The translations under genes and the position numbers were made by a program. From positions 1 to 36,542 of the forward strand of contig JALUVW010000077.1 of NCBI GenBank assembly GCA_027020105.1: a stretch of 36,542 bases of DNA. The letters run 5' to 3'. This document shows positions 5,273 through 29,312 of the stretch, piece by piece. The notes below the pieces were generated by a model, which saw only the letters and a program-made list of their open reading frames with translations, had not been told where the DNA came from and did not search any database. The stretch comes from Candidatus Falkowbacteria bacterium (GTDB lineage: Bacteria; Patescibacteriota; Patescibacteriia; Patescibacteriales; SZUA-104). Each line of letters opens with the position of its first letter. The stretch's first letter is position 1.

Positions 5273-5280
5273 TTTAATTA

Positions 5281-5397
5281 AATCAAAATTTAAAAATCAA
5301 AAATCAAAATGACAATTTAAAGTATAAAATTTATACAGTTTAATAATTTTAAATTCCGCATTGTCATTTTCCATTTTGCTTTTTGGTTTTTACATTT
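5281..5397. repeat. AT-rich inverted-repeat element E1 (heptamer-built arms) between the two giant genes
   Basis: Left arm taaaaatcaaaaatcaaaatgacaat (5291-5316) pairs with right arm attgtcattttccattttgctttttggttttta (5360-5393). The ~43-nt loop is AT-rich. Confidence 0.8.
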
Positions 5398-8016
5398 TTA
5401 TGGGCATTCGCTCCCGGCCGTCAACACCTCTCCGCAACAAGAAGGAAAAGCTTCCGTGGCCGCGCAATTCGGTCCGGCGCTCGGCTTAAAACAGTTTTGG
5501 TATATGTCTTTAACGCCGGAACCGACTTGCGAACGATAACTGGTCGCGTCGGAAAGCATTGAATGGTTAATCCGCGCCACCGTATAATCAGGGTATCCGT
5601 CCAAAGGGGGCGTATCAACGTTTTCTTTGGTAATCCAATAGCCGATCGGTTTGTTGTTGAAATTTCTGATATTTATCAATTTATGCTCAACCTTATTGTC
5701 GCCGTTGGACACCGTCTTGCTGCCGGTTTTCAAACTGTCCGACATCATCACCTTGCTGAAAGAAACCAATACCGGCTCGTTAAGAGAAACCCCCGAATAA
5801 TTATGTTCCGGTGAAATAAGATTGATTTTCGGCGGAGCCAAATCTATCGCGTCGCTAATATAAAACGACCACCGAAAATTATCCCCTCCCGGCCCTCCGG
5901 TATTTTCATTATAAAACGACACGGGAGCGTCGGCTTCTCCGTTTCTGTTGCCGTCCAATGAGTTGGAGGCGGTATCGGCAATTCCTTCCAACGGATAATT
6001 CGCGAGAGGATAATTTACGCCGTCTGAGTTTTGGCAAGCGTAGGAGGTTCCGACACTCGCGCAATTATTGTACGGCGTCTTATAAGCGCAATCGCTGTCG
6101 CCGGCGCATACGTCCAGCCGAGCGGCGACCATATCCACTTTTAAATTGGCGTTCTCCGGCAGGCAGTAAATCTTTTCTCCGCACCCGTTTACTCCGCATT
6201 GGTTGTCGGAGACAAACTCAACCGTTTTATAATTGTTGGAAACCGTAAAGCTGCCGCGAACGCAGACATCCGAACCGCAGTCAAAAAATTCCGAACCCGT
6301 ACAATCGCCGCTTACGCATTTTACGGCTATATAATCCTGCAAACTCTCGGCGTCGCCCGAAACCGTCAAAGGATTTACGGCTTCATTAAAGTTGATTTGT
6401 ATAACGGAGTTTCTCGGCTGATCCTTCTTGTCGTTTACGATGGTCGTCACTTCCCTGTCAGTTCCGCCGGACATGGGCGTTATGTCAATGGCGTCCGTAT
6501 TGCTGGTCGCCAACACAATATTGTTTCCGGAGCTGCCGGCGACTTTGGCGGTCACGAAAATTGAGCTTCCGGAGGTGACAAAACTGCCAAGAAGAGGATT
6601 TTTAACCAAAACGCCGGTAATATTGGACGCGGTCGCGGCCGTGGTTCCGCCAATGGCGATGTCCTCTCCGAAAACATAGGTTATATCGCCCGCGGTCAAT
6701 GTGTCCGCTTTTTGCTCGGCGGTGATGTCAACATTCCAAGAATTGCCGGCGCCGTAAGCGCCGTCGCCGGCAACGGTTAAGGTAAAATAACCCGGGAAAG
6801 TTACGGACGATCCGTTAAACGCGGCGGAACCGAGCAACACGCTTCCTTTGCTTAATTGCGCGGTTGAACCGTCCGATAAAATCGTAACCGTTAAAATTCC
6901 GCTCTCTTGATTGCCGCTGTCGGCAACCGCCTCGGCGTCGTTCCAATCGGCTCCCGACGGATTTTTGCCAACGCTCGCGACAACGGCGGGAACATAAACG
7001 TTCGGCTGGCCAACCACTCTTATGACGCCGCTTGCCGCCACGGCGTCGGTTATCGCGCCAACTTCGTCTTGCTCGTTGTCGGGCACGGGGAAAACGCCGC
7101 CTTCTTTAACTTGCGGCGGAGTCAGGTCCACTTTATTGCTGACTTTAAACTGCCACTCCATATAGTCGGCCGAACAAGTGGAGAAAATGCCGTTATTCGC
7201 GCCGCTCTTATCTCTTTTTTCTATTTCATTGGTTAAATGAACCGTATACCAAATATGCTCCGACGGCGAACCCAAATATTCAGTCGGAATAAAGACAAAA
7301 GTTTTATTGTCATTGGTGGCCACATTCACTTCAAGAACGTTTCCGTCGCAAGGGGGGCCGCAAGCGTCGCCGGCCGCGGTCTTGTAAATTCTGACATTTT
7401 CCGGAATTATATATTCTCCGGCATCGCAAACGCCGTTATTGTTGCCGCCCGCGTCATCGCAAAGAGTTGTCGGGTCAACCTCTTCCTTAAAAGTAATGAT
7501 AATGGCGGTGTTTCTCGGGACTTCTTCCTGGTTCGGCTCCGGATAAACGCTCTCAACCGTGCAACTCCCCAAGGCGCCGAGCCCCGTGCCCGCGTCGGGC
7601 GGACCGGCTCCCGGCCCCGGACCGCCGACTCTGGTCGCTCCCAAAAACTTGCTTAAAATAAACGTAACGATGCCGAACGACAACAAAATAATGGCCAGCC
7701 CGATAACCGCGTTTCTTAAAACTTGCTTGGCTTTTGTTATTCGCGATTCTTCGCCCCCCGAAGTCATCCAAAGAAATCCGGCATACATTATCAGGCCGAC
7801 AGCGATAATACCCAAGAAACCGATAAACACTCTGATTATTTTGGCCGCCAATATTCGCGGATCTTCGCTTCCCAACCCTATGGTGTTGCCGACTTCGTTC
7901 TGCGTCCCGCCCCAGAGCAAATTGTCCGCGCCTTGCGCCAAAGCGAAATTAACCGCGACGGACATGGCTGTCAACACGAAAAATATGACAATTAAATTTT
8001 TTGTTTTTTTTAGCAT
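5398..8016 (-). CDS. Large surface protein (872 aa), paralog of the giant gene. It has the same signal peptide and pilin-type two-TM hairpin, a Gly/Pro linker, several SbsA/Big_5-like Ig domains and Cys-rich segments.
   Basis: ORF-track protein. The N-terminus MLKKTKNLIVIFFVLTAMSVAVNFALAQ...IIRVFIGFLGIIAVGLIMYAGFLWMTSGGEESRITKAKQVLRNAVIGLAIILLSFGIVTFIL is ~75-80% identical to the first ~125 aa of the 1-5272 protein. Big_5-like segments: VESVYPEPNQEEVPRNTAIIITFKEEVDPTTL, DLTPPQV, DQPRNSVIQINFNEAVNPLTV, DLAPPKINLISPEHNYSGVSLNEPVLVSFSKVMMSDSL. Confidence 0.85.
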   Translation of the reverse strand: MLKKTKNLIVIFFVLTAMSVAVNFALAQGADNLLWGGTQNEVGNTIGLGSEDPRILAAKIIRVFIGFLGIIAVGLIMYAGFLWMTSGGEESRITKAKQVLRNAVIGLAIILLSFGIVTFILSKFLGATRVGGPGPGAGPPDAGTGLGALGSCTVESVYPEPNQEEVPRNTAIIITFKEEVDPTTLCDDAGGNNNGVCDAGEYIIPENVRIYKTAAGDACGPPCDGNVLEVNVATNDNKTFVFIPTEYLGSPSEHIWYTVHLTNEIEKRDKSGANNGIFSTCSADYMEWQFKVSNKVDLTPPQVKEGGVFPVPDNEQDEVGAITDAVAASGVIRVVGQPNVYVPAVVASVGKNPSGADWNDAEAVADSGNQESGILTVTILSDGSTAQLSKGSVLLGSAAFNGSSVTFPGYFTLTVAGDGAYGAGNSWNVDITAEQKADTLTAGDITYVFGEDIAIGGTTAATASNITGVLVKNPLLGSFVTSGSSIFVTAKVAGSSGNNIVLATSNTDAIDITPMSGGTDREVTTIVNDKKDQPRNSVIQINFNEAVNPLTVSGDAESLQDYIAVKCVSGDCTGSEFFDCGSDVCVRGSFTVSNNYKTVEFVSDNQCGVNGCGEKIYCLPENANLKVDMVAARLDVCAGDSDCAYKTPYNNCASVGTSYACQNSDGVNYPLANYPLEGIADTASNSLDGNRNGEADAPVSFYNENTGGPGGDNFRWSFYISDAIDLAPPKINLISPEHNYSGVSLNEPVLVSFSKVMMSDSLKTGSKTVSNGDNKVEHKLINIRNFNNKPIGYWITKENVDTPPLDGYPDYTVARINHSMLSDATSYRSQVGSGVKDIYQNCFKPSAGPNCAATEAFPSCCGEVLTAGSECP

Positions 8017-8035
8017 TGAATTTTTAGCATTAAAA

Positions 8036-8232
8036 TTAAAATGTAAATAGCAAAAATCAAAATGACAGTGTAAAATTTAAAATTAATTTTAGAAAATATT
8101 ACATAATCGGATTGCCGGCGCTTCTGATAAGCTTATAGATAAGCTATATTAAACGCGCTAAGGACCGGTAAAATAATTTTGCGTTTTTAATTGTCATTTT
8201 CCATTTTGATATTTAATTTTTAAATTTACATT
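8036..8232. repeat. AT-rich inverted-repeat element E2 (~200 bp, MITE-like), homologous to E6 in the opposite orientation
   Basis: Arms are caaaaatcaaaatgacagtg (8051-8070) and aattgtcattttccattttgatatt (8189-8213). The first ~60 nt and last ~45 nt align at ~90-95% with the reverse complement of 14995-15196. Confidence 0.8.
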
Positions 8233-8259
8233 GACTAATCCACAGTTTTGCTATTTAAT
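8231..8259 (+). promoter_or_regulatory. Candidate sigma70-type promoter for rel
   Basis: TTGACT (8231-8236), 17-nt spacer, TTTAAT (8254-8259), about 75 nt upstream of ATG 8336. Confidence 0.3.
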
Positions 8260-8335
8260 GATATTATACCATAAATAAAACCAAGCCATCAAATTCGGCG
8301 ATACGGAGTTTGCGAGTTAAGCGGCCATAGATTCT

Positions 8336-9805
8336 ATGACTATTGACCAAATCATAAATAAAGTGAAAAAAAACAACCCAAAAGCGGATTTGGACTTGTT
8401 AAGGCTGGCCTATGACTTCGCGCAAAAGGCGCATAAGGGACAAAAAAGGCAGAACGGAGAACCGTACATACAGCACTCGCTGCATACCGCCTTCACTTTG
8501 GCGCAAATAAAAACCGATTTAAACACTATAATAGCGGGTCTTCTTCATGATGTTCCCGAAGACACGAAATACACGCTCGCGGATATAGAAAAAAACTTCG
8601 GCAAGGAGGTGGCCGGCTTGGTCAAGGGAATAACCAAACTAAGCAAAATCAAATACCGCGGAGTGGAAAGGTACGTGGAATCTTTAAAAAAAATGTTTCT
8701 GGCCATGGCCAACGACTTAAGGGTGATTCTTATTAAATTCGCGGACCGACTGCATAATTTAAGAACGCTTGACGCCCTCCCCCCGGAAAAACAGCAAAGA
8801 ATAGCCAGGGAAACGCTGGACATCTACGCTCCCATTGCCGGCCTTCTCGGTATCTGGCGCTTTAAGTGGCAAATGGAGGACTTGTGTTTTAAATATCTTT
8901 ATCCGGATGATTTTAAAAAAATAGAATATAAATACGAAGTGGAAAAAAAAGTTGAACGCAATCAATATATTCAAGGAATAAAAAATATCTTAAGCAAGGA
9001 ACTGAAAAAAGAAGGCATAGAACACACGATAACCGGCCGATTCAAGCACTTATACAGTATTTACAAAAAAATGCAGGCAAAAGACAGGAAATTTGACGAA
9101 ATTTACGATGTGTTCGCCTTGCGCGTTGTCGTAAAAAGCATACCCGATTGCTATAAAACGCTTGGCATAATCCACACGCTTTGGAAGCCCAAGCCGAACA
9201 GATTTAAGGATTATATCGCCTTGCCGAAGCCGAACGGCTACCGTTCTTTGCATACCACCGTCTATGGTCCGAACGGCAAAGCGACGGAGTTCCAAATCAG
9301 AACCGAAGAAATGAACCAAGAAGCCTTATACGGTATTGCCGCCCATTGGTATTATAAGGAAGAAGGAGGGAGCTATGAAAAACACAAATCAAAACAACCG
9401 CGCTGGGTCAAGGAAATTATGGACCTGCAGCTTAACGCGAAAAACTCGCATGACTTTATCAAGCGGGTTAAGTTTGACGTTTTTCACGACCGCATTTTCG
9501 TGTTTTCTCCCAAAGGCGATGTTTATGATTTGCCCGAAGGCGCCACTCCGGTTGATTTCGCTTACGCCGTGCACACCGACATCGGCAACCAGTGTTCGCG
9601 CGCCTTAATCAACGATAAAATATCAACTCTGGACGCGAAACTGAAAAGCGGCGAAGTGGTTGAAATTATTACCGACAAAAACCGCAAATACCCCAATCGC
9701 GACTGGCTTAAATTCGTTAAAACCCAGAAAGCCCGCAACAAAATAAAACAATTTTCAAAAATCTCCAAATTGGAAACAATCAAAAAACTGCTTCCGAAAA
9801 TATAA
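8336..9805 (+). CDS. rel: Bifunctional (p)ppGpp synthetase/hydrolase of the RelA/SpoT (RSH) family. Short form: HD + synthetase + TGS, with no C-terminal ZFD/ACT-RRM region.
   Basis: HD motif LLHDVPEDT; synthetase motifs YRSLHTTV and EFQIRTEEMNQEALYGIAAHWYYKE; TGS-like IFVFSPKGDVYDLPEGATPVDFAYAVHTDIG. The protein is 489 aa and ends ~60 aa after the TGS domain. Confidence 0.9.
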   Translation: MTIDQIINKVKKNNPKADLDLLRLAYDFAQKAHKGQKRQNGEPYIQHSLHTAFTLAQIKTDLNTIIAGLLHDVPEDTKYTLADIEKNFGKEVAGLVKGITKLSKIKYRGVERYVESLKKMFLAMANDLRVILIKFADRLHNLRTLDALPPEKQQRIARETLDIYAPIAGLLGIWRFKWQMEDLCFKYLYPDDFKKIEYKYEVEKKVERNQYIQGIKNILSKELKKEGIEHTITGRFKHLYSIYKKMQAKDRKFDEIYDVFALRVVVKSIPDCYKTLGIIHTLWKPKPNRFKDYIALPKPNGYRSLHTTVYGPNGKATEFQIRTEEMNQEALYGIAAHWYYKEEGGSYEKHKSKQPRWVKEIMDLQLNAKNSHDFIKRVKFDVFHDRIFVFSPKGDVYDLPEGATPVDFAYAVHTDIGNQCSRALINDKISTLDAKLKSGEVVEIITDKNRKYPNRDWLKFVKTQKARNKIKQFSKISKLETIKKLLPKI

Positions 9806-10090
9806 ACAAACCACTTAACCCCTGTTTTCTCCTATTATTCTCCGCAGCTCCTTTACTTTGGCGCCGCTTACTTTCATTTTTTTCCGTTTTTTATTCCGCC
9901 TTTTTTCATATCTCTTCTCTATTTCCTCCTGTCGTTCGTTCAAATTTTGTTTATTCATAGAAAGATGATATAATTAACATAATGCGAATCCGCGAATTAA
10001 CTTATTCCGGCATTCGCAAATTCGTGGAATTCGCGCAGAATTCGTATGTTCGTATTATAATTTTATCATCAATCCAGTCAATAAACAATA

Positions 10091-10780
10091 ATGAAAAAAC
10101 ATTGGTATAAAAAATGGTGGGGAATAATATTGATTACGGTTCTAACGATATTTTTGATAGTTTTAACCGCTTCCGGTTTTTATGTTTACCGCGCCGCCAA
10201 ACGCATAAACGACAACCGATTAAGCCCGCCGGAAAAAATATCAATAGATTATAATAAAATAGACAAACAAACGCGCGCGAAAATTGAAGGCGCGGACAAC
10301 TACTGGATAGGCGCGGCAAACCCCGAGATAACCATTGTTGAATTCGGCGATTTCGCCTGCCACCATACCAAGAAATCGTTTCCGAAGATACGGGAAATCG
10401 GGACAAAGTACAAAAATAATGTTAAAATAATATTCAGGGATATGCCCTTGCAGGAAAATTCCTTGGAATTGTCGCTGGCCGGCCGCTGCGCCGGAGAACA
10501 AGGGCTGTTTTGGCCGATGTATGACAAGCTGTTCCAAAACCAAGGCGTAAGCGGCGCGGACGAACTCATTGAAACGGCAAATCAAATCGGCGCGGACACG
10601 GCCAGATTCGCCGACTGCTTAAAGAGCCAAAAATACATTAAACAAATTCAAAAAAATTTTTCAGACGGAGAAGATCTCGGAGTAAGAGGAACGCCGACAT
10701 GGTTTGTCAACGGCGTTAAAATAGAAGGAGATGTCCCGCTTAGTGTTTGGGAAAATATTATAAACGAATTATTAAAATGA
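10091..10780 (+). CDS. Membrane-anchored DsbA-family thioredoxin-fold protein with a monothiol CHHT active site
   Basis: N-terminal TM helix WWGIILITVLTIFLIVLTASGFYVY. Thioredoxin_4-like core ITIVEFGDFACHHTKKSFP...AGRCAGEQGLFWPMYDKLFQNQ...GVRGTPTWFVNG. The DNA reads ttc gcc tgc cac cat acc, so the usual CxxC is CxxT. Confidence 0.8.
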   Translation: MKKHWYKKWWGIILITVLTIFLIVLTASGFYVYRAAKRINDNRLSPPEKISIDYNKIDKQTRAKIEGADNYWIGAANPEITIVEFGDFACHHTKKSFPKIREIGTKYKNNVKIIFRDMPLQENSLELSLAGRCAGEQGLFWPMYDKLFQNQGVSGADELIETANQIGADTARFADCLKSQKYIKQIQKNFSDGEDLGVRGTPTWFVNGVKIEGDVPLSVWENIINELLK

Positions 10781-10782
10781 CA

Positions 10783-10897
10783 AAAAACTCAAAATGCAAA
10801 GCTCAAAACGCAAAGCTACAGTTAAAAACTAAGAACTATGCGATTTTAAGATTTAAATTGCGGTTTTGAGTTTTGAGTTTTGAGCTTTGAGTTTTAC
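10783..10897. repeat. AT-rich inverted-repeat element E3 (aaaactc-type heptamers), same family as E8
   Basis: Left arm aaaactcaaaatgcaaagctcaaaacgcaaagctacag pairs with right arm gcggttttgagttttgagttttgagctttgagtttt. Confidence 0.8.
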
Positions 10898-10906
10898 TAT
10901 AAAATT

Positions 10907-11461
10907 ATGTATCAAATAAGAGTACACGGCCGGGGCGGGCAAGGAGTCGTCACCGCCGCCGAGCTAATCGCCATCGCCGCTTTTTACGACGGGAAAGTAT
11001 CGCAAGCGTTCCCCTTTTTCGGCGTGGAAAGAACCGGCGCCCCGATTGAATCTTACGCCCGCATTGACGACAAATTTATCAGAACGCGCGAACAAGTTCA
11101 CGCGCCAGATATTTTAATCGTGCAAGACTCCACCTTGCTTGGAGTGACGGATGTGGCAAGGGGAACCAGTAAAAAAACAATAGCCATAGTCAATTCAGCC
11201 AAGGAAAAAGATAAATTGAATATTGACTTGCCGAAAGAAAACATCTTCGTGATTGACGCCACCAAAATCGCCTTGGACAAAATCGGAAAAAATATAGTTA
11301 ACACCACTATTTTGGGGGCTTTCGCCCGCGCCACCGGATTAGTGAGTTTAAATTCGTTAAAACTTGCCATTAAAGAAAAATTCAAGGAAAAGGGCGACAA
11401 AATAATCAATAAAAATATTGAAGCGGTGGAGGTAGCATACAAATCTTCCGCCGAGCTTTAA
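10907..11461 (+). CDS. porG: Pyruvate/2-oxoacid:ferredoxin oxidoreductase, gamma subunit
   Basis: MYQIRVHGRGGQGVVTAAELIAIAAFYDGK... is a typical gamma-subunit N-terminus. ATG 10907 is preferred over the track's TTG 10880, which lies inside repeat E3. Confidence 0.85.
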   Translation: MYQIRVHGRGGQGVVTAAELIAIAAFYDGKVSQAFPFFGVERTGAPIESYARIDDKFIRTREQVHAPDILIVQDSTLLGVTDVARGTSKKTIAIVNSAKEKDKLNIDLPKENIFVIDATKIALDKIGKNIVNTTILGAFARATGLVSLNSLKLAIKEKFKEKGDKIINKNIEAVEVAYKSSAEL

Positions 11462-11474
11462 CATTATATAAACC

Positions 11475-11562
11475 TCTACCGATCTTTAGCTCGCCTTCGC
11501 CAGGTTTTAACCTGCCGAACAGCGGCTAAAGCCGCCCGAACCCTGGCCTGAAGGCCGGTAGA
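11475..11562. repeat. GC-rich palindromic element G1 (ggctaaagccgcc / cgaaccctggcct family)
   Basis: The outer arms pair: tctaccg...gccttcgccaggtt with aaccctggcctgaaggccggtaga. The 26-nt block cgaaccctggcctgaaggccggtaga recurs at 29075-29100 with one mismatch. Confidence 0.7.
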
Positions 11563-11577
11563 ATACAAATTTTACTT

Positions 11578-11847
11578 ATGAAAATAAATATCACGGCCAA
11601 GCCGGGATCAACCCGCAACAACAAAACCGGCGGTTGGCGAACATTTAAGCCAAAAACCGATTTAGACAAATGCATAAGTTGCGGCACTTGCGCCAAAGTC
11701 TGCCCGGAAGGTTGTATTGAAATGAAAAAAATCGCAAAATACGAACAGCTGAAACCGAAAACCGACTATAACTACTGCAAGGGTTGCGGCGTTTGCGCCG
11801 CCGAATGCCCGGTTAAGGCGATTGTTATGGAACTGGATAAAAAATAA
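11578..11847 (+). CDS. porD: PFOR delta subunit (2x[4Fe-4S] ferredoxin)
   Basis: Two cluster motifs: CISCGTCAKVCP and CKGCGVCAAECP. The protein is 89 aa and lies between porG and porA. Confidence 0.85.
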   Translation: MKINITAKPGSTRNNKTGGWRTFKPKTDLDKCISCGTCAKVCPEGCIEMKKIAKYEQLKPKTDYNYCKGCGVCAAECPVKAIVMELDKK

Positions 11848-11851
11848 TTAA

Positions 11852-11966
11852 ATTAAAATGTAAAAATCAAAAATCAAAATGACAATGCAAAATTTAAAAT
11901 TATTAAACTTTAAAAATTTTACACTTTAAATTGTCATTTTGATTTTTGATATTTAATTTTTAAATT
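11852..11966. repeat. AT-rich inverted-repeat element E4 between porD and porA
   Basis: Left arm aaaatgtaaaaatcaaaaatcaaaatgacaatg pairs with right arm aaattgtcattttgatttttgatatttaattttta. Confidence 0.8.
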
Positions 11967-11971
11967 ATTTT

Positions 11972-13159
11972 ATGAATAACAAAAATCAACAAATCCTTGA
12001 GGGTTCCAGGGCGATAGCTTTAACCATTAACAACATTGGGCCGGCTGTCATTTCCGCCTACCCGATCACCCCGCAAACCCATATCGTGGAGGACTTGGCC
12101 AAATTCAAGGCGGACGGAGACGCCGATTACGAATACGCGCGGGCGGAAAGCGAATTCGCGGCGGCCTCTATTGTGGAGGGAGCGAGCGCCGCCGGCGCGC
12201 GCGTCTATACCGCGACCAGTTCGCAAGGACTGCTTTTAATGGCGGAGGTATTGTTTAATATCGCCGGTATGCGCTTGCCGATCGTGGTGACCTGCGCCAA
12301 CCGCGGCGTTTCCGCGCCGATTACGATTTGGAACGACCAGCAAGACGCGATGACCATCCGCGACGCCGGCTGGATACAAATGTTCGCCGAAAACCATCAA
12401 GAAGCGGTTGACCAGCATATTATGGCCTACAAAATCGCCGAGCAAACGAATCTGCCGGTTATGGTCAATATTGACGGCTTTGTTTTAACGCATTCTTACG
12501 AACCGGTTATTATTCCCACCAGAGCGCAAATCAAAAAATACCTGCCGGATTATAAACCTAAAAAGGGACAATATTTGGACCCGGCCAATCCGGTTACCCT
12601 CGGCGCCTTCGCCCGACCCCAGCATTATATGGAAATCCGCCAAGACCTGCATAATGACCTGATGTCCAGTCTCAATTTAATTAACAAAGAGTATATTAAA
12701 TATAGAAAAACAATAAAAACAATGAAGTCCGACATCGGGTGCCCGATGTCGGACTTCGGAGCGGAAAATAACGGCTTAGTTGAATACTACGGCCCCAAAA
12801 AGCCTAAAATCATCTTAGTGGCGATGGGCTCGGTTATCGGAACGATAAAGGAAGTGGCGGATAAAACAAAAGGCGTCGGCGCGCTAAAAATAAAGACTTA
12901 CCGCCCGTTCCCCGAAGACGCGATTTTCAATATTTTAAAAAAGGCCAAATACGTGGCCGTTTTGGACAAATCCATATCGCTGGGGCATATCGGGCCGTTG
13001 GCTTCCGACATTAAATCGGCAATGCAGGGGAAAATCAAGGCTAAAATCCAAAGCTTTATAGTCGGATTGGGAGGACGGGATATTACGAAGGAAATGATTG
13101 GGGGAATTGTTAGGGAAGTTAAGAAAGGGGATGGTGGGGTGAAATTTATCGGGAAATAG
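11972..13159 (+). CDS. porA: PFOR alpha subunit
   Basis: 395 aa. AVISAYPITPQTHIVEDLA...YTATSSQGLLLMAEVLFNIAGMRLPIVV is typical of porA/korA alpha subunits. Confidence 0.9.
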   Translation: MNNKNQQILEGSRAIALTINNIGPAVISAYPITPQTHIVEDLAKFKADGDADYEYARAESEFAAASIVEGASAAGARVYTATSSQGLLLMAEVLFNIAGMRLPIVVTCANRGVSAPITIWNDQQDAMTIRDAGWIQMFAENHQEAVDQHIMAYKIAEQTNLPVMVNIDGFVLTHSYEPVIIPTRAQIKKYLPDYKPKKGQYLDPANPVTLGAFARPQHYMEIRQDLHNDLMSSLNLINKEYIKYRKTIKTMKSDIGCPMSDFGAENNGLVEYYGPKKPKIILVAMGSVIGTIKEVADKTKGVGALKIKTYRPFPEDAIFNILKKAKYVAVLDKSISLGHIGPLASDIKSAMQGKIKAKIQSFIVGLGGRDITKEMIGGIVREVKKGDGGVKFIGK

Positions 13160-13188
13160 AAAGATTTATGAATTAAGATTTATGATTT

Positions 13189-13317
13189 ATGAATAATGGA
13201 AAAATAAAATCATTTACTGATATTAAAGCATGGCAAAAGGGATATCACCCCGACGGCTCCATGCTTCGCGTGGAGCCGTCAAGGGCTTTAAAAAAATTCT
13301 TAAATCATAATTCGTAA
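13189..13317 (+). pseudogene. Remnant of a four-helix-bundle (23S rRNA intervening-sequence-type) protein gene, interrupted by a GC hairpin
   Basis: Translation is MNNGKIKSFTDIKAWQKGYH|PDGSMLRVEPS|RALKKFLNHNS. The first 20 aa match the family's characteristic N-terminus (F-x-D-L/I-x-x-W-Q-K). The middle segment is the hairpin gacggctcca...tggagccgtc. The remnant is 42 codons, against ~120 aa for intact members. Confidence 0.55.
13252..13280. repeat. GC hairpin G2 (GACGGCTCCA-N9-TGGAGCCGTC), upstream flank of the small pilin-type gene
   Basis: 10-bp perfect stem. It is related to the copy at 14101-14154 and shares the GCGTGGAG box with the 51-bp element at 15821-15871 and 30831-30881. Confidence 0.75.
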
Positions 13318-13328
13318 ATCCTAAATCT

Positions 13329-14069
13329 ATGAAAAAAATCCCTAAAATTATAGTATCAACATTCTTAACAATCTTCATCCTCCAAATGATAGGTCTAATA
13401 GTCTTATTGTCCGTTCCCGCGCAAGCGGCTGATGTGAAATTTAAACCTCAAATTGAAGTTCCCGGCTTGGAAAAAGGGCTTAAGGGCAGTAAAGAAGACG
13501 GGTATATAATTGAATCAACCACGATTGGCGAATACATTAAGGCCATCTATAAATACGCCATCGGCGTTGTCGGCATTTTGGCCGCGGTTGTGTTGATGAT
13601 CGGCGGAATCGTCTGGCTCACGGCCGGCGGAAACCAGACCAGAATCGGCGAAGCCAAGGCGTGGATAGGCGCGTCCCTGACCGGCCTGATTATCGCTTTA
13701 ACTTCGTATATGATTTTATGGACGGTTAATCCGGCGCTGGTGCGATTTAAGCCGATAAAAGTGGCGACGGTAACGGAACTAAAAAATGGATGCTGTGAAC
13801 TAAATAACGGAAAAGCGATGAATTCAACAGACACGGACTGCCCGGAAGACGTGGGAGTCTTCAACGACGGTAAAGTGGCAAGCGCCGACGGAAGCGCTTG
13901 CGTTAACAAAGAAACGGTGGTGGACTTAAAAGGATCCGGGCCCGGATGCTGCATCAAGCCCGGACTTTTCGGATATAATTGCGACTATGTCTCTTCTCAA
14001 GATGATTGCGACGATGGATATGAATTCCTTCTTGGCGTAAAATGTGAAGAAATTGATAAATGCCAATAA
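13329..14069 (+). CDS. Small TrbC/VirB2-like (CPR T4SS-pilin-type) protein with a Cys-rich C-terminal domain
   Basis: Signal/TM segment KIIVSTFLTIFILQMIGLIVLLSVPAQA, then IGEYIKAIYKYAIGVVGILAAVVLMIGGIVWLTAGGNQTRIGEAKAWIGASLTGLIIALTSYMILWTVNPALV (TM, GG loop, EAK, TM, INP-LV-like end). A ~100-aa tail with 12 Cys follows. Confidence 0.8.
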   Translation: MKKIPKIIVSTFLTIFILQMIGLIVLLSVPAQAADVKFKPQIEVPGLEKGLKGSKEDGYIIESTTIGEYIKAIYKYAIGVVGILAAVVLMIGGIVWLTAGGNQTRIGEAKAWIGASLTGLIIALTSYMILWTVNPALVRFKPIKVATVTELKNGCCELNNGKAMNSTDTDCPEDVGVFNDGKVASADGSACVNKETVVDLKGSGPGCCIKPGLFGYNCDYVSSQDDCDDGYEFLLGVKCEEIDKCQ

Positions 14070-14100
14070 CCCTGTTTGTTATTTAAAATTATAAAACTCA

Positions 14101-14154
14101 CGACGGATCCATGCTGCGCGTGGAGCCATAGCGCAAAGCGTGGAGCCGTCAAAG
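14101..14154. repeat. GC hairpin G3 (partially duplicated copy of G2), downstream flank of the small pilin-type gene
   Basis: cgacggatccatgctgcgcgtggagcc + atagcgcaaa + gcgtggagccgtcaaag, in the same orientation as G2. Confidence 0.7.
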
Positions 14155-14207
14155 TTGACAAAAAGTTAATCTTTAGTTAATCTTTAGTTAAACTTTAGTT
14201 AAAATTA
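14155..14207 (+). promoter_or_regulatory. Promoter of the first toxin-antitoxin operon, overlapped by four tandem 11-nt repeats (candidate operator)
   Basis: TTGACA (14155-14160), 17-nt spacer, TAATCT (14178-14183). Tandem repeats agttaatcttt / agttaatcttt / agttaaacttt / agttaaaatta span 14164-14207. Confidence 0.55.
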
Positions 14208-14224
14208 ATTAATCTTAAAAATAT

Positions 14225-14440
14225 ATGGAAAATATTATTAACTTAAAAAATTTAAGGGAAAATATGAGCGATTACGCCAAAAAAATCGCGCAAGGACAAA
14301 CTTTCATTGTTTTTAAACAGTCAAAACCGCTGTTTAAAATTTCTCCGGTGGACGAAGAAAGCCGATGGGAAGAAGTAATTGATTTTACTAAAATAAAAAA
14401 AGGAGGAGTTGATATTGATGAAGTGCTGTCCCGCCTGTAA
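14225..14440 (+). CDS. Type II antitoxin, Phd/YefM-like
   Basis: 71 aa. MENIINLKNLRENMSDYAKKIAQGQTFIVFKQSKPLFKISPV resembles Phd/YefM N-terminal domains. It lies directly upstream of a RelE/ParE-like gene. Confidence 0.6.
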   Translation: MENIINLKNLRENMSDYAKKIAQGQTFIVFKQSKPLFKISPVDEESRWEEVIDFTKIKKGGVDIDEVLSRL

Positions 14441-14490
14441 ATTATTCACTTCGTGGATCCCGAGTACTCGCTAACTTGCGAATTATTAAT

Positions 14491-14733: not shown

Positions 14734-14776
14734 TTAAAATCCCCCGGCCCCCTTTAATAAATGGTGATAAAACGAT

Positions 14777-14992
14777 ATGATTTACTTCACCAAATACGCG
14801 GAAAAAAAATTTGATATACTGAATAAACACAAGGTTTATTTTACGCGCGAACAAGTGGAAGATGCCGTGAAGCTGCCCGACAAACTGGAGAAAAAAGGCA
14901 AATACTTGGCGGCGCGGAAGGATGGAGTGAAGGTGGTTTATATAATAGAAAATGAAATTATAAAAATTATAACCTTTTTTCCTGTAAAATAA
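14777..14992 (+). CDS. DUF4258-like small protein (putative toxin partner of DUF2283)
   Basis: 71 aa. YFTKYAEKKFDILNKHKVYFTREQVEDAV...VKVVYIIENEIIKIITFFPV fits the DUF4258 layout. Confidence 0.5.
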   Translation: MIYFTKYAEKKFDILNKHKVYFTREQVEDAVKLPDKLEKKGKYLAARKDGVKVVYIIENEIIKIITFFPVK

Positions 14993-14994
14993 TG

Positions 14995-15196
14995 GAAAAA
15001 TCAAAAATCAAAATGGAAAATGACAATTAAAAATGCAAAATTATTTTATCGGTTTAAAATATTTTAATATATCTTACCGTATGAGCCGCATTATTTAAGT
15101 AAAACAGGTAATCCAATTGCAATATTCTCTAAAATTAATTTTAAAATTTTACATTGTTATTTTGATTTTTGATTTTTACATTTTGATTTTTATTTT
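14995..15196. repeat. AT-rich inverted-repeat element E6 (~200 bp), inverted homolog of E2, inserted between the DUF4258 and DUF2283 genes
   Basis: Arms are aaaaatcaaaaatcaaaatggaaaatgacaatt and acattgttattttgatttttgatttttacattttgattttt. The ends align with the reverse complement of E2. Confidence 0.8.
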
Positions 15197-15406
15197 ATGT
15201 ATTACGACCCCGAAGCCAATATAATATCATGGGAAATCGCGCGAGGGAAAATCAGCCACGCGCGGGAGTTCGGCAATTTTATAATTCATTTGTCCAAATC
15301 AGGCAAACCGCTATTGATTGAAATACTGGACGCGTCGAGATTCGCGGGGCAATTTAACAAGCTGAAAAACGCGGAGGAATTAAGGAAAGTAGTGGCGGTA
15401 AATTAA
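15197..15406 (+). CDS. DUF2283 (YuzE-like) small protein, putative antitoxin partner of DUF4258
   Basis: MYYDPEANIISWEIARGKISHAREFGNFIIHLSKSGKPLLIEILDAS fits the DUF2283 pattern (YD-x-E-x-D...GxxxGIEILxAS). Confidence 0.6.
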   Translation: MYYDPEANIISWEIARGKISHAREFGNFIIHLSKSGKPLLIEILDASRFAGQFNKLKNAEELRKVVAVN

Positions 15407-15528
15407 AATGTAAAAATATTTTTAAACTTAAGCGACATAACATATGGAGCTAGGGTATTAGAGATTTTAACAAATTTTAAATAAATTCATTTTAAATTTT
15501 ACACTGTCATTTTGATTTTTGATTTTTG
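15404..15528. repeat. AT-rich element E7 (left arm truncated, right arm complete)
   Basis: The left end taaaatgtaaaaat matches the start of E4. The right arm is aaattttacactgtcattttgatttttgatttttg. Confidence 0.6.
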
Positions 15529-15559
15529 AATTATTTATTACAAACTGACAAGAAAAATT

Positions 15560-16546
15560 ATGCCTATGAAGCCAACAATGTCTAAAGTAAAAACAAAACA
15601 ACTATTATCCCCCGGCCATACCGCTTGCGCCGGATGCGGACAAATGATTGCCGCGAGAACCGTTGCCCAAGCGCTGGGACCGAACACTATTATCGCCAAC
15701 GCCACCGGCTGCCTTGAAGTGACGACAACCGCCTATCCTATGAGCTCGTGGGGAATGCCGTGGATACACTCCTTGTTTGAAAACGCGTCCGCCGTCGCCT
15801 CGGGAATAAAAGCGGCGTTGAAATATAAAGAGACTAAGTCTCCAATTGGAGACTTAGTCTCCACGCCTAAAGTTGTCGCCCAAGGCGGAGACGGAGGAAC
15901 TTTTGACATCGGCTTCGGCTTGATTTCCGGAATGTGGGAGCGAGGCGATGATATTCTCTATATCTGTTACGACACCGAAGCGTATTCCAATACCGGCATA
16001 CAAGCCTCCGGCGCCACCCCCTGGGCGGCGTCCACCACCACGACTCCGTCCGGTAAATGTATGAGTAAAACGAAGTCCGGTTTCGGCGGAGCGGATGAAG
16101 ATTGCCCGATTGACGCGATCGGCTCGCATCAAAGAAAAAAGGATATGATCGCCATCGCTTTGGCGCACAGATTGCGTTACGTGGCGCAAAGCACCGCCGG
16201 CTTCCCGGATGATATTGCCGCCAAGGTTAAAAAAGCCTTAACCTTTAAGGGTCCGAAATATATCCAAATTATGGCTCCCTGCGTGCCGGGATGGAAAATA
16301 AGTTCCGCGCAGGCGGTGCGGATAGGAAAATTGGCCGCCCAAACCGGACTTTACCCGCTCCTGGAGTATGAAAACGGACAACTGACGAATGTTCTAAAAG
16401 TCCCGAAACCGCGTCCGAAAGTGGATGAATACCTTAAACTGCAAGGCCGATTCGCGCATCTCTTTAAGAATAAAAGCGGAAAAAAGCAAATTGCCTATAT
16501 ACAAAAATTAGCTGACGGGAATATTGAGAAGTATGGTTTAAAATAG
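15560..16546 (+). CDS. porB: PFOR beta subunit (TPP-binding), carrying an in-frame 51-bp palindromic element
   Basis: Motifs GHTACAGCG, GGDGGTFDIGF and YDTEAYSNTG. Residues KYKETKSPIGDLVSTPK are encoded by 15821-15871. Confidence 0.9.
   Translation: MPMKPTMSKVKTKQLLSPGHTACAGCGQMIAARTVAQALGPNTIIANATGCLEVTTTAYPMSSWGMPWIHSLFENASAVASGIKAALKYKETKSPIGDLVSTPKVVAQGGDGGTFDIGFGLISGMWERGDDILYICYDTEAYSNTGIQASGATPWAASTTTTPSGKCMSKTKSGFGGADEDCPIDAIGSHQRKKDMIAIALAHRLRYVAQSTAGFPDDIAAKVKKALTFKGPKYIQIMAPCVPGWKISSAQAVRIGKLAAQTGLYPLLEYENGQLTNVLKVPKPRPKVDEYLKLQGRFAHLFKNKSGKKQIAYIQKLADGNIEKYGLK
15821..15871. repeat. 51-bp palindromic element, in-frame copy inside porB
   Basis: aaatataaagagactaagtctccaattggagacttagtctccacgcctaaa is the exact reverse complement of 30831-30881. 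The core GAGACTAAGTCTCCAATTGGAGACTTAGTCTC is a perfect 32-nt palindrome. The element is 17 codons and starts in frame (15821-15560 = 261). Confidence 0.95.
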
Positions 16547-16653
16547 TTCAAAACTCAAAACTCAAAGTTCAAAACTACAACTAAAAGTTCAAGGCTATTT
16601 AGTTTTAAGTTTTGAGCTGTGGTTTTGAGCTTTGAGTTTTGAGTTTTGAACTT
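16547..16653. repeat. AT-rich inverted-repeat element E8 (aaaactc family, like E3)
   Basis: Left arm ttcaaaactcaaaactcaaagttcaaaactacaac pairs with right arm gttttgagctgtggttttgagctttgagttttgagttttgaa. Confidence 0.8.
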
Positions 16654-16655
16654 CA

Positions 16656-16690: not shown

Positions 16691-16717
16691 TATTAAATTT
16701 TTCAACTTGAACCGTCC

Positions 16718-20674: not shown

Positions 20675-20729
20675 AATAAATAAATTTCTAAATTATAATT
20701 TCTAAAAAAATTATAATGACAAAATCCTA

Positions 20730-20820
20730 ACGACAAATCAGGTTCAAACGACTTAATGTTAAAAACTTAAGCGTTTGTATTTTTGATTTGGCGTTTTAGC
20801 TTTGGATTTAAAAAATTTAA
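20730..20820. repeat. AT-rich inverted-repeat element E13 in the rpoB-rpoC spacer
   Basis: Left arm aaaatcctaacgacaaatcaggttcaaacg pairs imperfectly with right arm cgtttgtatttttgatttggcgttttagctttggattt. Confidence 0.6.
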
Positions 20821-20826
20821 AAATTT

Positions 20827-24267: not shown

Positions 24268-24377
24268 ATATGAATAGGCTAATTAAAATAAAAAATTATA
24301 AAATTAAGCAATATTAAGCAATTTAAAGACTTAAAGAACGGACGGCCAATGGCTTTATATATTGTCGTTTCGGCAAC

Positions 24378-24405
24378 AAAAAACCTCAAGATTGTTTATC
24401 TTGAG
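24378..24405 (-). terminator. Rho-independent terminator ~110 nt upstream of the rpoB start
   Basis: The minus strand reads CTCAAGAT-aaaca-ATCTTGAG-G-TTTTTT: an 8-bp stem (24385-24392 / 24398-24405) followed by a U-run (24378-24383). Confidence 0.65.
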
Positions 24406-24756
24406 TAATTTTTAATTATTTGGTTAAGAGAGTTTGTTTGCGCGAAGTTAGGTTTGCCACTGAATTTAATAAAGTAAATTATAAATTAAAAAGCATGAAG
24501 ATTTTTTGTTTATGATGCGCGAGACGCGCGAGGCGCCATAAACCGCTTCCCGATAATTCACCGTGCCAATCCGCTTATTTTAAAGTCGCGGTCCGCTCGC
24601 GATTAAATCGTTACCCAGGCGTTTCCTCCGGTTAAAAATAAAAAAACGGCATAAAATTTCACGCTTTTCCGCGTGATTTCTCCGTTTCGTTTCATTAATG
24701 ATTTCAATATTAAAAATATTACTTTTTCGCAAAATAATAATTTTACTTGTTTTCTA

Positions 24757-24785
24757 ATACTAACAACAAATAAACCGCTTGTCAA
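24757..24785 (-). promoter_or_regulatory. Near-consensus sigma70-type promoter pointing toward rpoB
   Basis: On the minus strand: TTGACA (24785-24780), 17-nt spacer agcggtttatttgttgt, TAGTAT (24762-24757). Confidence 0.5.
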
Positions 24786-24960
24786 GCCCTGCGCGCTCTA
24801 TTTTGAAAAATTCAATATTTTTATTGCTTTTTGTTTAATATTAGGGAAATATATTTTATCGTTTCGTTGTTTTATTGCCAAACGGTTTGATTATTGTTTG
24901 AGTTATCCACAACTTTGTTTCATAATTTAGGCAACGGATAATTAACCGAATATCACTATT

Positions 24961-25025
24961 GCCCCCGTGGGGGCGAACACCGTTCGCCCCCACTAACCGT
25001 CGCCCCGATTGCGGGCGGTTCCGGG
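24961..25025. repeat. GC-rich hairpin cluster G4 downstream of murE
   Basis: GGGGGCGAAC-acc-GTTCGCCCCC (10-bp stem) and CGCCC-cgattg-CGGGCG. Confidence 0.6.
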
Positions 25026-25058
25026 TTTGTGATTTTCCCCAAGCACCGATTACAAATT

Positions 25059-26474: not shown

Positions 26475-26483
26475 AAATACAAA

Positions 26484-26697
26484 GTTTAAAAATCAAAAAT
26501 CAAAATGACAGTTTAAAACGCAAAGCTTAAAAAAACTTTATAGAGCTTAATATATTTTACAGAATAAGTCGTGTTGTCGGGTGAAATCGGCAGAAACTTC
26601 CCGCTAAAGCGGGAAAGGTTGTATCGCGGTGAAAATTTTTAAATTTTTAAACTTTACATTGTCATTTTAATTTTTGATTTTTACATTTTGATTTTTT
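26484..26697. repeat. AT-rich inverted-repeat element E9 with a ~130-nt loop
   Basis: Arms are gtttaaaaatcaaaaatcaaaatgacagtt and actttacattgtcattttaatttttgatttttacattttgatttttt. The loop contains the hairpin cttcccgctaaagcgggaag. Confidence 0.8.
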
Positions 26698-27718: not shown

Positions 27719-27747
27719 ATATTTTACTTTAAGTTCCCGCGGATATT

Positions 27748-27860
27748 AGGGGGGGATAAACACCCCCTTGATAAAGGAACCTGCCTTCCGTAGAGACGAG
27801 GCACTGCCTCGTCTCTACGGCGAAGGAAGGGTTGGCCCCGCCTTTCGCGAAAGGCGGGGT
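27748..27860. repeat. GC-rich palindrome cluster G5 upstream of the FemAB-family gene
   Basis: Three palindromes: gggggataaacaccccc; a 33-nt palindrome CCGTAGAGACGAGGCAcTGCCTCGTCTCTACGG (27788-27820); and a perfect 24-nt palindrome CCCCGCCTTTCGCGAAAGGCGGGG (27836-27859). Confidence 0.85.
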
Positions 27861-27940
27861 TGGGGAATTATTAATTTTTAATTTTAATTGGAAATTGAAA
27901 ATCATTACTTGTTTGAAAATTGAAAATTTCGCTATCACTC

Positions 27941-27968
27941 TTGCATTATTTTTAGATTAGTGTATAAT
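27941..27968 (+). promoter_or_regulatory. Strong sigma70-type promoter of an orphan small transcription unit
   Basis: TTGCAT (27941-27946), 16-nt spacer ending in TG, TATAAT (27963-27968). Confidence 0.6.
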
Positions 27969-27974
27969 AAGGAT

Positions 27975-28113
27975 TGAAATTCACAAAAAGGAGGTGATGC
28001 CTTTGAGGGCACGCATAGTCGATAATCATAATTAAAACACAATCGACAGGTCCCGGCCCTATCTTAATCTCTTGTGAATCCAATACCTGTTAAGAGATAA
28101 GATAGGGCCTTTT
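27975..28113 (+). ncRNA. Candidate ~140-nt structured small RNA, or a leader with a 10-12 codon mini-ORF
   Basis: It is bounded by the promoter at 27941-27968 and the terminator at 28055-28119. It contains AAAGGAGGTGAT (27987-27998) and the hairpin GTCGAT-N18-ATCGAC. The 5' segment ATTCACAA and the upstream ACAGGT are each complementary to the terminator loop (TTGTGAAT, ACCTGT). No downstream plus-strand gene follows. Confidence 0.4.
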
Positions 28114-28119
28114 AATTTT
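28055..28119 (+). terminator. Rho-independent terminator with a long stem
   Basis: GGCCCTATCTTAATCTCTT (28055-28073) pairs with AAGAGATAAGATAGGGCC (28092-28109) with one bulge, followed by TTTTAATTTT. Confidence 0.75.
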
Positions 28120-28261
28120 AAATCAACAACTCCGTATCGCGCCCGAGAACATGGCGCGGACCGTGATATTATCCGGCCAAGTCATTTTTCTCGACCAAAA
28201 ATCTTATATAAAAATATCGGAAATAACAAATATTCTAAAATTCTCAACTCTCAATTCCGGC

Positions 28262-28843: not shown

Positions 28844-28859
28844 AAATAAAATTCATAAA

Positions 28860-28945
28860 TCCAAAGCTCAAATGACAAATCAAATCCAAATTATTAAATG
28901 ATTAAATTCAGGCATTCCGTCATTTGAGCTTGATTTGTCATTAAG
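28860..28945. repeat. AT-rich inverted-repeat element E11 (aaatgac/aaatcaa heptamers)
   Basis: agctcaaatgac (28865-28876) pairs with gtcatttgagct (28919-28930). aatgacaaatcaa pairs with ttgatttgtcatt. Confidence 0.75.
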
Positions 28946-28994
28946 ATTTCGGCATTAAAATTTTTGATTAACTATATAAAAATTTCTGAAGTTT

Positions 28995-29100
28995 CCCCCG
29001 GCCCCTCCCCTCGCGAGAGGAGGGGCGGGGTTCGGGCGGCTTTAGCCGCGTACCGTTACGAAGCTAAAGCTTCACGAACCCTGGCCTAAAGGCCGGTAGA
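28995..29100. repeat. GC-rich palindromic element G6 (same family as G1)
   Basis: cccccggcccctcccctcgcgagaggaggggcgggg, then ttcgggcggctttagccgcg (an inverted copy of the G1 core), then cgaaccctggcctaaaggccggtaga. Confidence 0.75.
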
Positions 29101-29160
29101 AACCGCTTAAATATCTAATTAAATATCTAAAACTTGCTATTTTATTTAATCTGATAATCG

Positions 29161-29312
29161 CCAAATTCAAAATTACAAATTCCAAATAAATTCAAAGCGC
29201 TAAATTAAAAATTTAAAACAGTTTTGAATCCCCGATCAAGTTAAGGATAAGTTTTGAAAATTTAAATTTGTGATTTATTTGGAATTTGTGATTTTGAATT
29301 TGGAATTTAGTT
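29161..29312. repeat. AT-rich inverted-repeat element E12 (caaattc-type heptamers), abutting the U32 gene stop
   Basis: Left arm caaattcaaaattacaaattccaaataaattcaa (29162-29195). Right arm aaatttgtgatttatttggaatttgtgattttgaatttggaattt (29263-29308). Confidence 0.85.

Follow-up and report, generated by a model that had tools for sequence, protein, structure and literature searches.

Intergenic hairpins with tandem-heptamer arms in a Candidatus Falkowbacteria contig are probably gene-less copies of PF05635 cassettes akin to rRNA intervening sequences

Intervening sequences (IVSs) of bacterial rRNA genes are among the closest described counterparts of the elements treated here, which are AT-rich hairpins with arms of tandem short units in the gene-to-gene spacers of a 36,542-nt stretch of Candidatus Falkowbacteria DNA (contig JALUVW010000077.1; this whole stretch is the window below). 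In Coxiella, the 23S rRNA IVS has a 28-bp terminal stem and, immediately upstream of the S23p ATG, 2-3 tandem units GACAGAT, at the first of which it is cut by RNase III; it has been termed selfish, its mobility not having been demonstrated (PMC4990558). Insertions in rRNA of the Candidate Phyla Radiation (CPR) contain open reading frames (ORFs) for intervening-sequence proteins (IVPs; PMC11270868), and PF05635 is the Avd family of diversity-generating retroelements (DGRs; PMC10053308).

We consider it probable that the hairpins of the window are mostly gene-less, non-autonomous copies, comparable to MITEs (miniature inverted-repeat transposable elements), of small selfish IVS-like cassettes with a PF05635 gene. 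In a full cassette, the PF05635 gene is preceded by a left arm of tandem units and followed by a right arm with the reverse-complement sequence, and the whole fits precisely from a host gene's stop codon to the start codon of its downstream neighbour. The units are 7 nt long, in some clades 9 nt, and the gene encodes a four-helix bundle of ~115-128 aa (23S rRNA-IVP, Avd-like). Like the rRNA IVSs of Coxiella and Leptospira, these elements have terminal inverted repeats that form an enclosing stem around a PF05635 ORF, occur in forms without the ORF or with a decaying one, and are distributed sporadically in a way that suggests horizontal transfer (PMC4990558, PMC11270868). The loop of full-length members encodes PF05635 in relatives, and in the window only a 20-codon remnant of it. 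Unlike the rRNA IVSs, the window elements lie between protein-coding genes and not in 23S or 16S rRNA helices, there are many copies per genome in several families, and the arms, 45-60 nt long, consist almost wholly of tandem units.

MITEs and small palindromic repeats (Correia/CREE, ERIC, RUP, BOX, Nezha and the Rickettsia palindromic element, RPE) provide a second comparison. The window elements resemble them in being short, multi-copy and non-coding, in having terminal inverted repeats, in being present or absent at orthologous sites and in their kinship to a longer gene-carrying element; one window arm also lies in frame within a gene (U32 peptidase), a likeness to RPE. They differ in that the cognate gene encodes a PF05635 four-helix bundle and not a known transposase, that no target-site duplication could be discerned against background and that the terminal repeats consist of 7- or 9-nt units in tandem array. 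A third comparison is with heptamer arrays, namely the short tandemly repeated repetitive (STRR) type of cyanobacteria, GGGAATC of Xanthomonas (70-75 convergent inverted pairs), TAACTGA of Beggiatoaceae and the heptanucleotide elements of Geobacter. These share with the window spacer arrays of 3-14 tandem 7-nt units, frequently placed right at start codons, a location within operons, occasional inverted pairs and a patchy phylogenetic distribution. The arrangement described for Xanthomonas, two convergent 7-nt arrays close together in one spacer (PMC4692102), recurs in the window with an unrelated unit. Reports on the arrays of Xanthomonas, Nostoc, Beggiatoaceae, Bacteroidetes and Geobacter found no mechanism evident and do not mention the PF05635 family (PMC4692102, PMC4679880, PMC2700814). 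In contrast to the window elements, these arrays have been described without a link to PF05635, have other unit sequences and are in many cases single.

The IVPs share the PF05635 fold family with Avd, the accessory protein of DGRs, and give a weak PF22296 (bAvd-like) match. Avd is by published description a basic pentamer that binds nucleic acid, and DGRs are reportedly common in CPR. Unlike DGRs, the cassettes stand alone between tandem-unit inverted repeats; neither a reverse transcriptase nor a template/variable repeat pair lies beside the cassettes examined, and the window genes include no reverse transcriptase domain. A full-text literature search returned no paper linking PF05635 genes to tandem-unit inverted repeats outside rRNA, and no description of IVP cassettes, or of copies lacking the gene, in spacers of mRNAs.

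Hairpins of the window and the PF05635 cassette

An earlier note on this DNA had listed thirteen elements between 5281 and 29312 and had seen one in nearly every spacer. At most of these positions, a repeat finder and Tandem Repeats Finder detected AT-rich inverted repeats that are long and have arms of period 7. The best ungapped inverted repeat of each of 23 spacers was then scored against shuffled versions of that spacer with dinucleotide content preserved. Scores exceed chance, with z = 6.6 to 21, in nine spacers (5274, 8017, 10781, 11848, 13160, 14993, 16547, 26475 and 28844), so that the complementarity of these arms is greater than AT-rich composition would give, and the existence of long inverted repeats with heptamer arms is confirmed. 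Their frequency had been overstated: among the 18 spacers in 5281-29312, nine hold a clear element, two or three a degenerate one and six none, and by the same scoring none of the five spacers beyond 29.3 kb holds one. As to the thirteen, nine are clear and the hairpin at 28857-28945 is real, whereas those at 15404, 20730 and ~27880 are weaker than claimed (Table 1).

Arm edges lie from zero to a few nt from the upstream stop codon and at most ~11 nt from the next start codon. The A-rich arm comes first in all window elements; relatives, among the loci from other genomes and plasmids used for comparison (L-numbers), add T-first families and 9-nt units. Predicted stems comprise 28-72 pairs, with minimum free energy (MFE) z-scores down to -18. 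The heptamers, said earlier to differ from locus to locus, do fall into several families, but six or seven loci have family A in common and two have family B. The core 22-mer of family A, AAAATCAAAAATCAAAATGACA, occurs ten times at six loci (at most 3 mismatches) versus 0 expected; family B has a 26-mer present in both arms at two loci, 10784 and 16545. The loops of the window elements are unique, and only the element at 13161 holds a gene remnant.

Inspection of the closest relative, L119 (~83% nucleotide identity across relA-dsbA-porCDA), reveals inverted repeats with tandem-unit arms in the orthologous spacers too, built there of other units, some of them 9 nt in length. The L119 arms corresponding to window 13161-13328 enclose an intact 126-aa PF05635 (23S_rRNA_IVP) ORF (E = 7e-38), which also gives the weak PF22296 match. 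In the window, the remnant of this gene is the first 20 codons (13189-13248) of ORF 13189-13317, MNNGKIKSFTDIKAWQKGYH (hmmsearch E = 0.0027), and the rest has been replaced by a GC-rich hairpin resembling repetitive extragenic palindromes (REPs).

A family-A-flanked IVP gene, L066, pointed to a protein of 123 aa that has 3663 cluster representatives. The best 120 of these 3663 are 80-89% identical across CPR phyla (Doudna-, Wolfe-, Harrison-, Terry-, Yanofsky- and Moranbacteria), a degree of conservation well above that of housekeeping proteins in the same lineages, and recent horizontal spread is therefore likely. Family-A arms were predicted beforehand for genes of this protein and then found there. 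Every family-A arm of the window, read in its A-rich sense, aligns with the left end of cassettes L203, L213, L222 and L066. The alignment takes in the ATG and first ~10 codons, ATGGAAAATGACAATGTAAAGTTTAAAA, of the cognate ORF, which starts ATGGAAAATGACAATGTAAAGTTTAAAAATGAA, and similarity ends beyond; the right arm of element 5278..5397, reverse-complemented, reads ...AAAATGGAAAATGACAATGCGGAATTTAAAA, a match to the IVP ORF start. That is to say, the family-A hairpins of the window are two cassette termini minus the gene; the identity of the elements is shown, and they are best read as gene-less derivatives of IVS-like PF05635 cassettes.

The association extends to all fetched loci. For 13 distinct PF05635 genes the median inverted-repeat score of the flanks is 17.5, against a median of 7 and a 99th percentile of 13.3 for 1238 control ORFs of similar size (p = 4e-6). 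Those few controls that score high are housekeeping genes (YbeY, S8, S13, SSB) flanked by two family-A hairpins, which indicates that the hairpins also invade ribosomal-protein operons.

Arm units track protein clades. The 9-nt unit RRGAYNNTT goes with one clade at 65-97% identity in four different genomic contexts, TAGCYNN with a second IVP clade, AATTTYN with a third (L243 included) and AAAATNN with the clade of the 123-aa protein. Mean arm similarity is 24.9 above 80% protein identity and 14.4 at 60-80%, against a baseline of 7.7, and the link is clear only in bins of at least 60% protein identity. The arms and the gene have thus been inherited or moved together, and we infer that the protein recognises its own repeat unit. 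The IVP gene is co-oriented with both neighbours in ~13 of 16 cassettes from CPR and in 9 of 10 from cyanobacteria, which suggests that the cassettes rely on the host, probably being transcribed by read-through of its operons.

The GC-rich hairpin repeat that takes the place of the decayed IVP gene body, GACGGCTCCATGCTTCGCGTGGAGCCGTC (13245-13275), occurs again at 14100-14152 downstream of the pilin-like gene. Repeats of this type are also found in relatives (L119, 9887-10040; L243, 11456-12070, in many copies beside a Y1_Tnp gene), and they may form a system like those of REPs and REP-associated tyrosine transposases (RAYT).

Spread and turnover at orthologous junctions

The exact family-A 22-mer, searched in a collection of species-representative genomes, is present in more than 117 stretches, and among the matches listed nearly all are metagenome-assembled genomes of Patescibacteria from many candidate phyla. 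A few lie in bins labelled Pacearchaeota, Omnitrophota and others, labels that are unverified, and L033 holds a complete hairpin of family-A design. Matches in Flavobacterium (L013) and Oscillatoriales (L034) were rejected as chance or coding. In 117 loci there are 75 paired hairpins, with a modal distance of 48-55 nt between cores, and ~100 solo or degenerate arms. The modal spacing gives a canonical element of ~125 nt, identical in layout to window 11846-11970.

Junctions of close relatives are either empty, with 2-12 nt between TAA and ATG, or carry different families at the same sites. The porD-porA junction is empty (-12 to +7 nt) in ~33 of 54 relatives, L176 included (84% PorA identity; TAAatatatATG). 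The same junction holds the 124-nt family-A element in the window, a full cassette with 9-nt units in L119, gene-less 9-nt copies in L120, L125 and L149, and a hairpin of AATTTTT units in L243. Between the toxin-like ORF and DUF2283, the spacer measures 12 nt in L243 (empty) and 204 nt in the window, and in L121 it contains an IVP gene. No empty state was seen between porA and the pilin gene, where the window has its clade-4 remnant and L243 an intact IVP of another clade; in L119 the clade-4 IVP follows an additional ATPase gene and lies upstream of the pilin gene. In the dsbA-porC spacer, L119 has a family with 9-nt units and L243 yet another, third one; the rpoC-rpoB spacer of L243 carries a different heptamer hairpin of 70 nt. 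Over 14.8 kb, the nearly identical strain L242 (99.93% identity) differs by no indel.

That junctions turn over between relatives at 81-85% protein identity, with identical ends recurring in distant genomes, is the pattern of mobile elements in competition for the few permissive sites that a compact genome offers. A selfish hairpin element had been one of the possibilities named at the outset, and comparison of orthologous spacers one of the proposed checks. The multi-copy families, the exact 22-mers in more than 100 other stretches, the junctions that are empty or differently occupied in close relatives and the homology to the ends of gene-carrying cassettes all support that possibility.

The proposed course of events is as follows. 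Loss of the gene from a cassette would leave two arms, as in the window. In RNA, these arms would be expected to fold into a long AU-rich stem and, by analogy with the rRNA IVSs, transcribed elements are probably cleaved there by RNase III, which would make insertion within an operon tolerable. The conserved terminal units would be the probable recognition sites of the cassette's own multimeric protein.

Two further observations concern individual cassettes. L203 and L210 share the upstream gene and the IVP cassette, which is followed by hisS in one and by secDF in the other, placing the cassette at a rearrangement breakpoint. In L119, the right arm of the 9-nt-unit cassette (5938-6000) apparently continues in frame into PorA as a 21-aa N-terminal extension (MIKNKSKKSQRSSQRSQESQESQRSQ-ILEGS...).

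Weighing the cassette origin against its alternatives

Several results weigh against a cassette origin of the hairpins, or against their behaviour as just proposed. A direct tie to an IVP gene exists for families A and C only, and families B, D, E and F are connected by shared design and by related arms elsewhere. The direction from cassette to gene-less copy is shown at 13161 and likely for the 9-nt family, and is not proven for family A. Target-site duplications could not be separated from background in the AT-rich junctions (TAA, T-rich, ATG). Neither a transposase nor any other known mobility enzyme is encoded by the cassettes, and for PF05635 no catalytic activity is known. Some IVP genes (L031, L232, L236, L199) have no inverted arms or direct ones, and a global Mantel test of protein identity against arm similarity was not significant (r = 0.076, p = 0.13). 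Folding gives no sign that the RNA stem is selected or cleaved: across 46 canonical family-A copies, 75% of cells pair within copies versus 78% when partners are shuffled among copies, with a covariation score below all 500 shuffles, and the sense strand folds better in four elements and the antisense strand in six, with no G-U asymmetry. The mismatches at the last 2-3 nt of most units could also blunt RNase III.

The covariation result bears on the earlier suggestion that each locus keeps its arms complementary by selection or local generation. Pairing within the 46 copies is no better than between them, the covariation between arms that had been sought is missing, and RNAalifold returned no consensus structure for the same copies. 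Pairing stems from invariant A/T tracts; variation lies in the final 2-3 nt of each unit, most of which are left unpaired. Complementarity is therefore inherited from a shared terminal-repeat consensus, with no evidence that compensatory evolution upholds it, and the earlier suggestion is not supported.

It is unlikely that the host has selected and maintains the hairpins as regulatory RNA structures that, placed between cistrons, stabilise mRNA or serve for processing by RNase III. The length and stability of the predicted stems, their exact stop-to-start placement, the interior of the por operon included, and the RNase III cleavage of the analogous Coxiella IVS stem would suit such a function. 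Against it, relatives at 81-85% PorA identity have empty junctions or unrelated families, compensatory changes and G-U strand asymmetry are both lacking, and distant phyla carry identical arms together with a conserved gene.

Less plausible still is a local origin in which nothing moves, replication slippage producing the tandem heptamers in AT-rich spacers and intrastrand template switching (quasi-palindrome correction) copying one arm into the other. Arms built of tandem units, unit numbers that differ among Coxiella strains and unit sequences that differ at the same spacer in close relatives are what such a process would leave, and slippage has been proposed to explain the heptamer excess of Xanthomonas (PMC4692102). 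It does not account for an exact 22-mer and a ~125-nt consensus common to more than 100 stretches of many lineages, or for arms that include the beginning of a conserved gene, from its start codon through its first codons. Within a copy, the two arms resemble each other no more than they resemble the arms of other copies, contrary to what arm-on-arm copying would give, and L242 lacks indels.

Intrinsic or bidirectional terminators of an AT-rich style, or coupled terminator-promoter modules, are highly improbable. The constant order of an A-rich and then a T-rich arm in the window recalls the A-tract/hairpin/T-tract of a bidirectional terminator, and some T-rich arms contain TTGTCA-N17-TAAATT (for example 5315-5287, upstream of a Big_5 gene). 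However, no arm is among the 14 terminator-like sites found by scanning 5000-17000 for a GC stem with a T-run, and the conventional GC-stem hairpin at 16658-16688, which that scan missed, lies beside an element and not within it. The promoter-like hexamers, the -10-like one included, are not conserved across copies, relatives have T-first polarity, and elements sit between por subunit genes whose ancestral stop and start codons overlap. The judgement of the earlier note that these are unlikely to be simple terminators thus stands on the arms as well as on their place within the por operon; of its two operon-interior examples, porD-porA holds a clear family-A element, whereas rpoC-rpoB holds only a degenerate gapped hairpin.

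Weakest of all is mobilisation in trans by a Y1 (HUH) transposase, as for REP/BIME- or IS200/IS605-type hairpins: Y1_Tnp genes do adjoin IVP genes in L222 (3117-3818) and L243 (12071-12613), but that of L222 has its own different GC-rich hairpins (CTTACGAGGTTCGACCTCGTAAG) and no heptamer arms, the spacer upstream of that in L243 (the one side read) has GC-rich hairpins of the GGAGTT/CATGGAG type, ~1.6 Mb of loci (L243 left out) contain no further homologue of the L222 protein, and arms of 45-60 nt of tandem units are unlike REPs, so that Y1 transposase was rejected as the mobiliser.

Wider occurrence and setting of the elements

A tblastn search of plasmids with an IVP gave 39 records, mostly Nostocales, and the link between PF05635 and arrays was checked on plasmids of Nostocales, other cyanobacteria and Riemerella. 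In cultured strains, inverted tandem units flank the IVP gene in Nostoc, Trichormus, Aulosira, Picosynechococcus, Geminocystis, Stanieria and Riemerella. The units are CAGGAGT/CAGAATT in Nostoc punctiforme, Trichormus and Aulosira, GGGAACA, GGGAAAA and AGGAGAT in other cyanobacteria and AAGGTTY in Riemerella; exceptions have direct arrays or none. On 50 kb of the plasmid pNPUN01, the IVP gene scores 16 and the coding sequence just upstream 26, and the other 39 coding sequences score at most 9. This plasmid also holds gene-less inverted heptamer pairs.

In the cyanobacterial plasmids L236, L237 and L238, PF05635 genes lie within CRISPR-cas operons (cas6/cas4, cas10/cmr3 and beside cas4). This placement probably explains the survey label 'cas-associated' for the PF05635 family.

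It is possible, and we put it forward tentatively, that PF05635 proteins and inverted 7- or 9-nt tandem arrays form an unrecognised cross-phylum class of mobile cassettes in which the multimer recognises its own unit. The rRNA IVSs would then be a special case, the cassettes might move by a new, possibly RNA-mediated, route, and footprints or gene-less copies of them would make up the heptamer arrays of cyanobacteria (STRR-type), Xanthomonas, Beggiatoaceae, Bacteroidota and Geobacter. A cassette origin offers an explanation for a striking CPR trait, hairpins in the few non-coding gaps, essential operons included, and widens the concept of the intervening sequence from rRNA to mRNA spacers. It gives a testable role to a very large family of unknown function (four-helix-bundle/S23p), relatives of the DGR Avd, and suggests a common explanation for intergenic heptamer arrays that have been without a mechanism in several phyla for decades. 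The elements mark operon junctions and may shape mRNA processing in unculturable organisms. They can also confuse gene calling, where arms are translated as N-terminal extensions or in-frame inserts.

Table 1. Hairpin elements and candidates in the window, with the clear inverted repeats or arms and z-scores against shuffled spacers
Extent	Element	Place	Inverted repeat or arms	z	Details
5278..5397	family-A hairpin, no ORF	between two Big_5 surface-protein genes (-)	5285-5391; arms 5285-5331, 5345-5391	6.6	
8028..8232	family-A hairpin	divergent spacer Big_5 gene/relA	8031-8228; arms 8031-8089, 8170-8228	13.8	unique 80-nt loop
10781..10900	family-B hairpin, units AAAACTC/AAAGCTC	dsbA-porC spacer	10784-10895	8.8	
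11846..11970	canonical ~125-nt family-A element	porD stop codon to porA start codon, whole spacer	11846-11970	15.1	
13161..13328	family-C hairpin, units AGATTTA/TGAATTA, around decayed PF05635 gene	+ strand	13162-13328	9.8	
14989..15198	family-A hairpin	between toxin-like small ORF and DUF2283 partner	14989-15198	7.8	
15404..15535	degenerate family-A element		good T-rich arm 15490-15532, A-rich stub 15404-15420	0.1	exact family-A 22-mer at 15505-15526, - strand
16545..16652	family-B hairpin	convergent spacer porB/rpoC	16545-16652	21.2	45 pairs, -59 kcal/mol; conventional GC-stem terminator-like hairpin directly after (16658-16688)
20700..20815	degenerate gapped hairpin, AA....A heptamer units	rpoC-rpoB spacer		0.3 (ungapped)	MFE z = -3.9; 32 pairs
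26475..26695	family-A hairpin	femAB/murE-like gene	26475-26695	9.5	unique loop with small GC hairpin
27866..27930	weak candidate, few AATTTTT / TTGAAAA units			not prominent against shuffles	units direct or weakly inverted, little complementarity
28857..28945	other-family hairpin (AAAGCTCAAATGACAAATCAAATCC)	just beyond ruvA (-) start codon, ruvA-U32 spacer			28 pairs; genuine hairpin, units permuted between arms; 1-mismatch copy in L092
29161..29303	family-D hairpin, units CCAAATT/CAAAATT		29161-29303	15.7	arms 97% complementary; related arms also in L019 and L002

The window is Patescibacteria (CPR) DNA that encodes T4SS_pilin-type proteins, FemAB and translin, and the closest named relatives of its PorA (~76% identity) are Ca. 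Falkowbacteria, Parcubacteria and 'Patescibacteria group'. Its genes run from two large Big_5 surface proteins (-) through relA, dsbA, porC, porD, porA, a pilin-like gene, two toxin-antitoxin-like pairs, porB, rpoC/rpoB (-), a murE-like gene, femAB and ruvA to a U32 peptidase, translin, a T2SSE ATPase, tRNA-Leu and gyrA. Coding regions have ~45-54% G+C, element-bearing spacers 11-33% and other spacers up to 53%. At gathering threshold, Rfam matches the tRNA alone in the whole window, which contains no rRNA.

The por operon is split between porA and porB by ~2.4 kb (13329-15406) that hold a T4SS-pilin-like gene and two small toxin-antitoxin-like pairs, one a Phd-like gene with a RelE-sized ORF and the other a 71-aa ORF with DUF2283; this arrangement is kept in L243 and partly in L119. 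Most gene starts of the window have no visible Shine-Dalgarno-like sequence, for example 8336, 11972, 15560, 24267 (-) and 26474 (-), and several promoter-like hexamers lie in T-rich arms, from which leaders would be very short or absent. Two long non-coding stretches, 24268-25058 (791 nt) and 27719-28261 (543 nt), contain GC-rich hairpins without an Rfam match at gathering threshold.

Other palindromes lie inside genes. A perfect GC-rich palindrome occupies 12724-12757 within porA in frame (peptide ...KSDIGCPMSDF...), and L119 has a different perfect palindrome (6744-6795) at about the same porA codon position, so that the site recurs with an unrelated sequence. The 32-nt perfect palindrome GAGACTAAGTCTCCAATTGGAGACTTAGTCTC occurs twice, in the porB coding sequence (15829-15862) and in the U32-translin spacer (30831-30862). 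The U32 peptidase gene (29314-30813) contains two in-frame insertions, at 30057-30123 and 29755-29828. One is a single family-D heptamer arm, inverted, with 35 nt identical to 29161-29195 and translated as KITNSKLQIPNKFKIQNPNVQNY; the other is a GC palindrome pair (GTAGAGACGAGGCAGTGCCTCGTCTC) that is present at 27788-27820 too. Both recall the palindromic elements of Rickettsia that lie in frame within genes.

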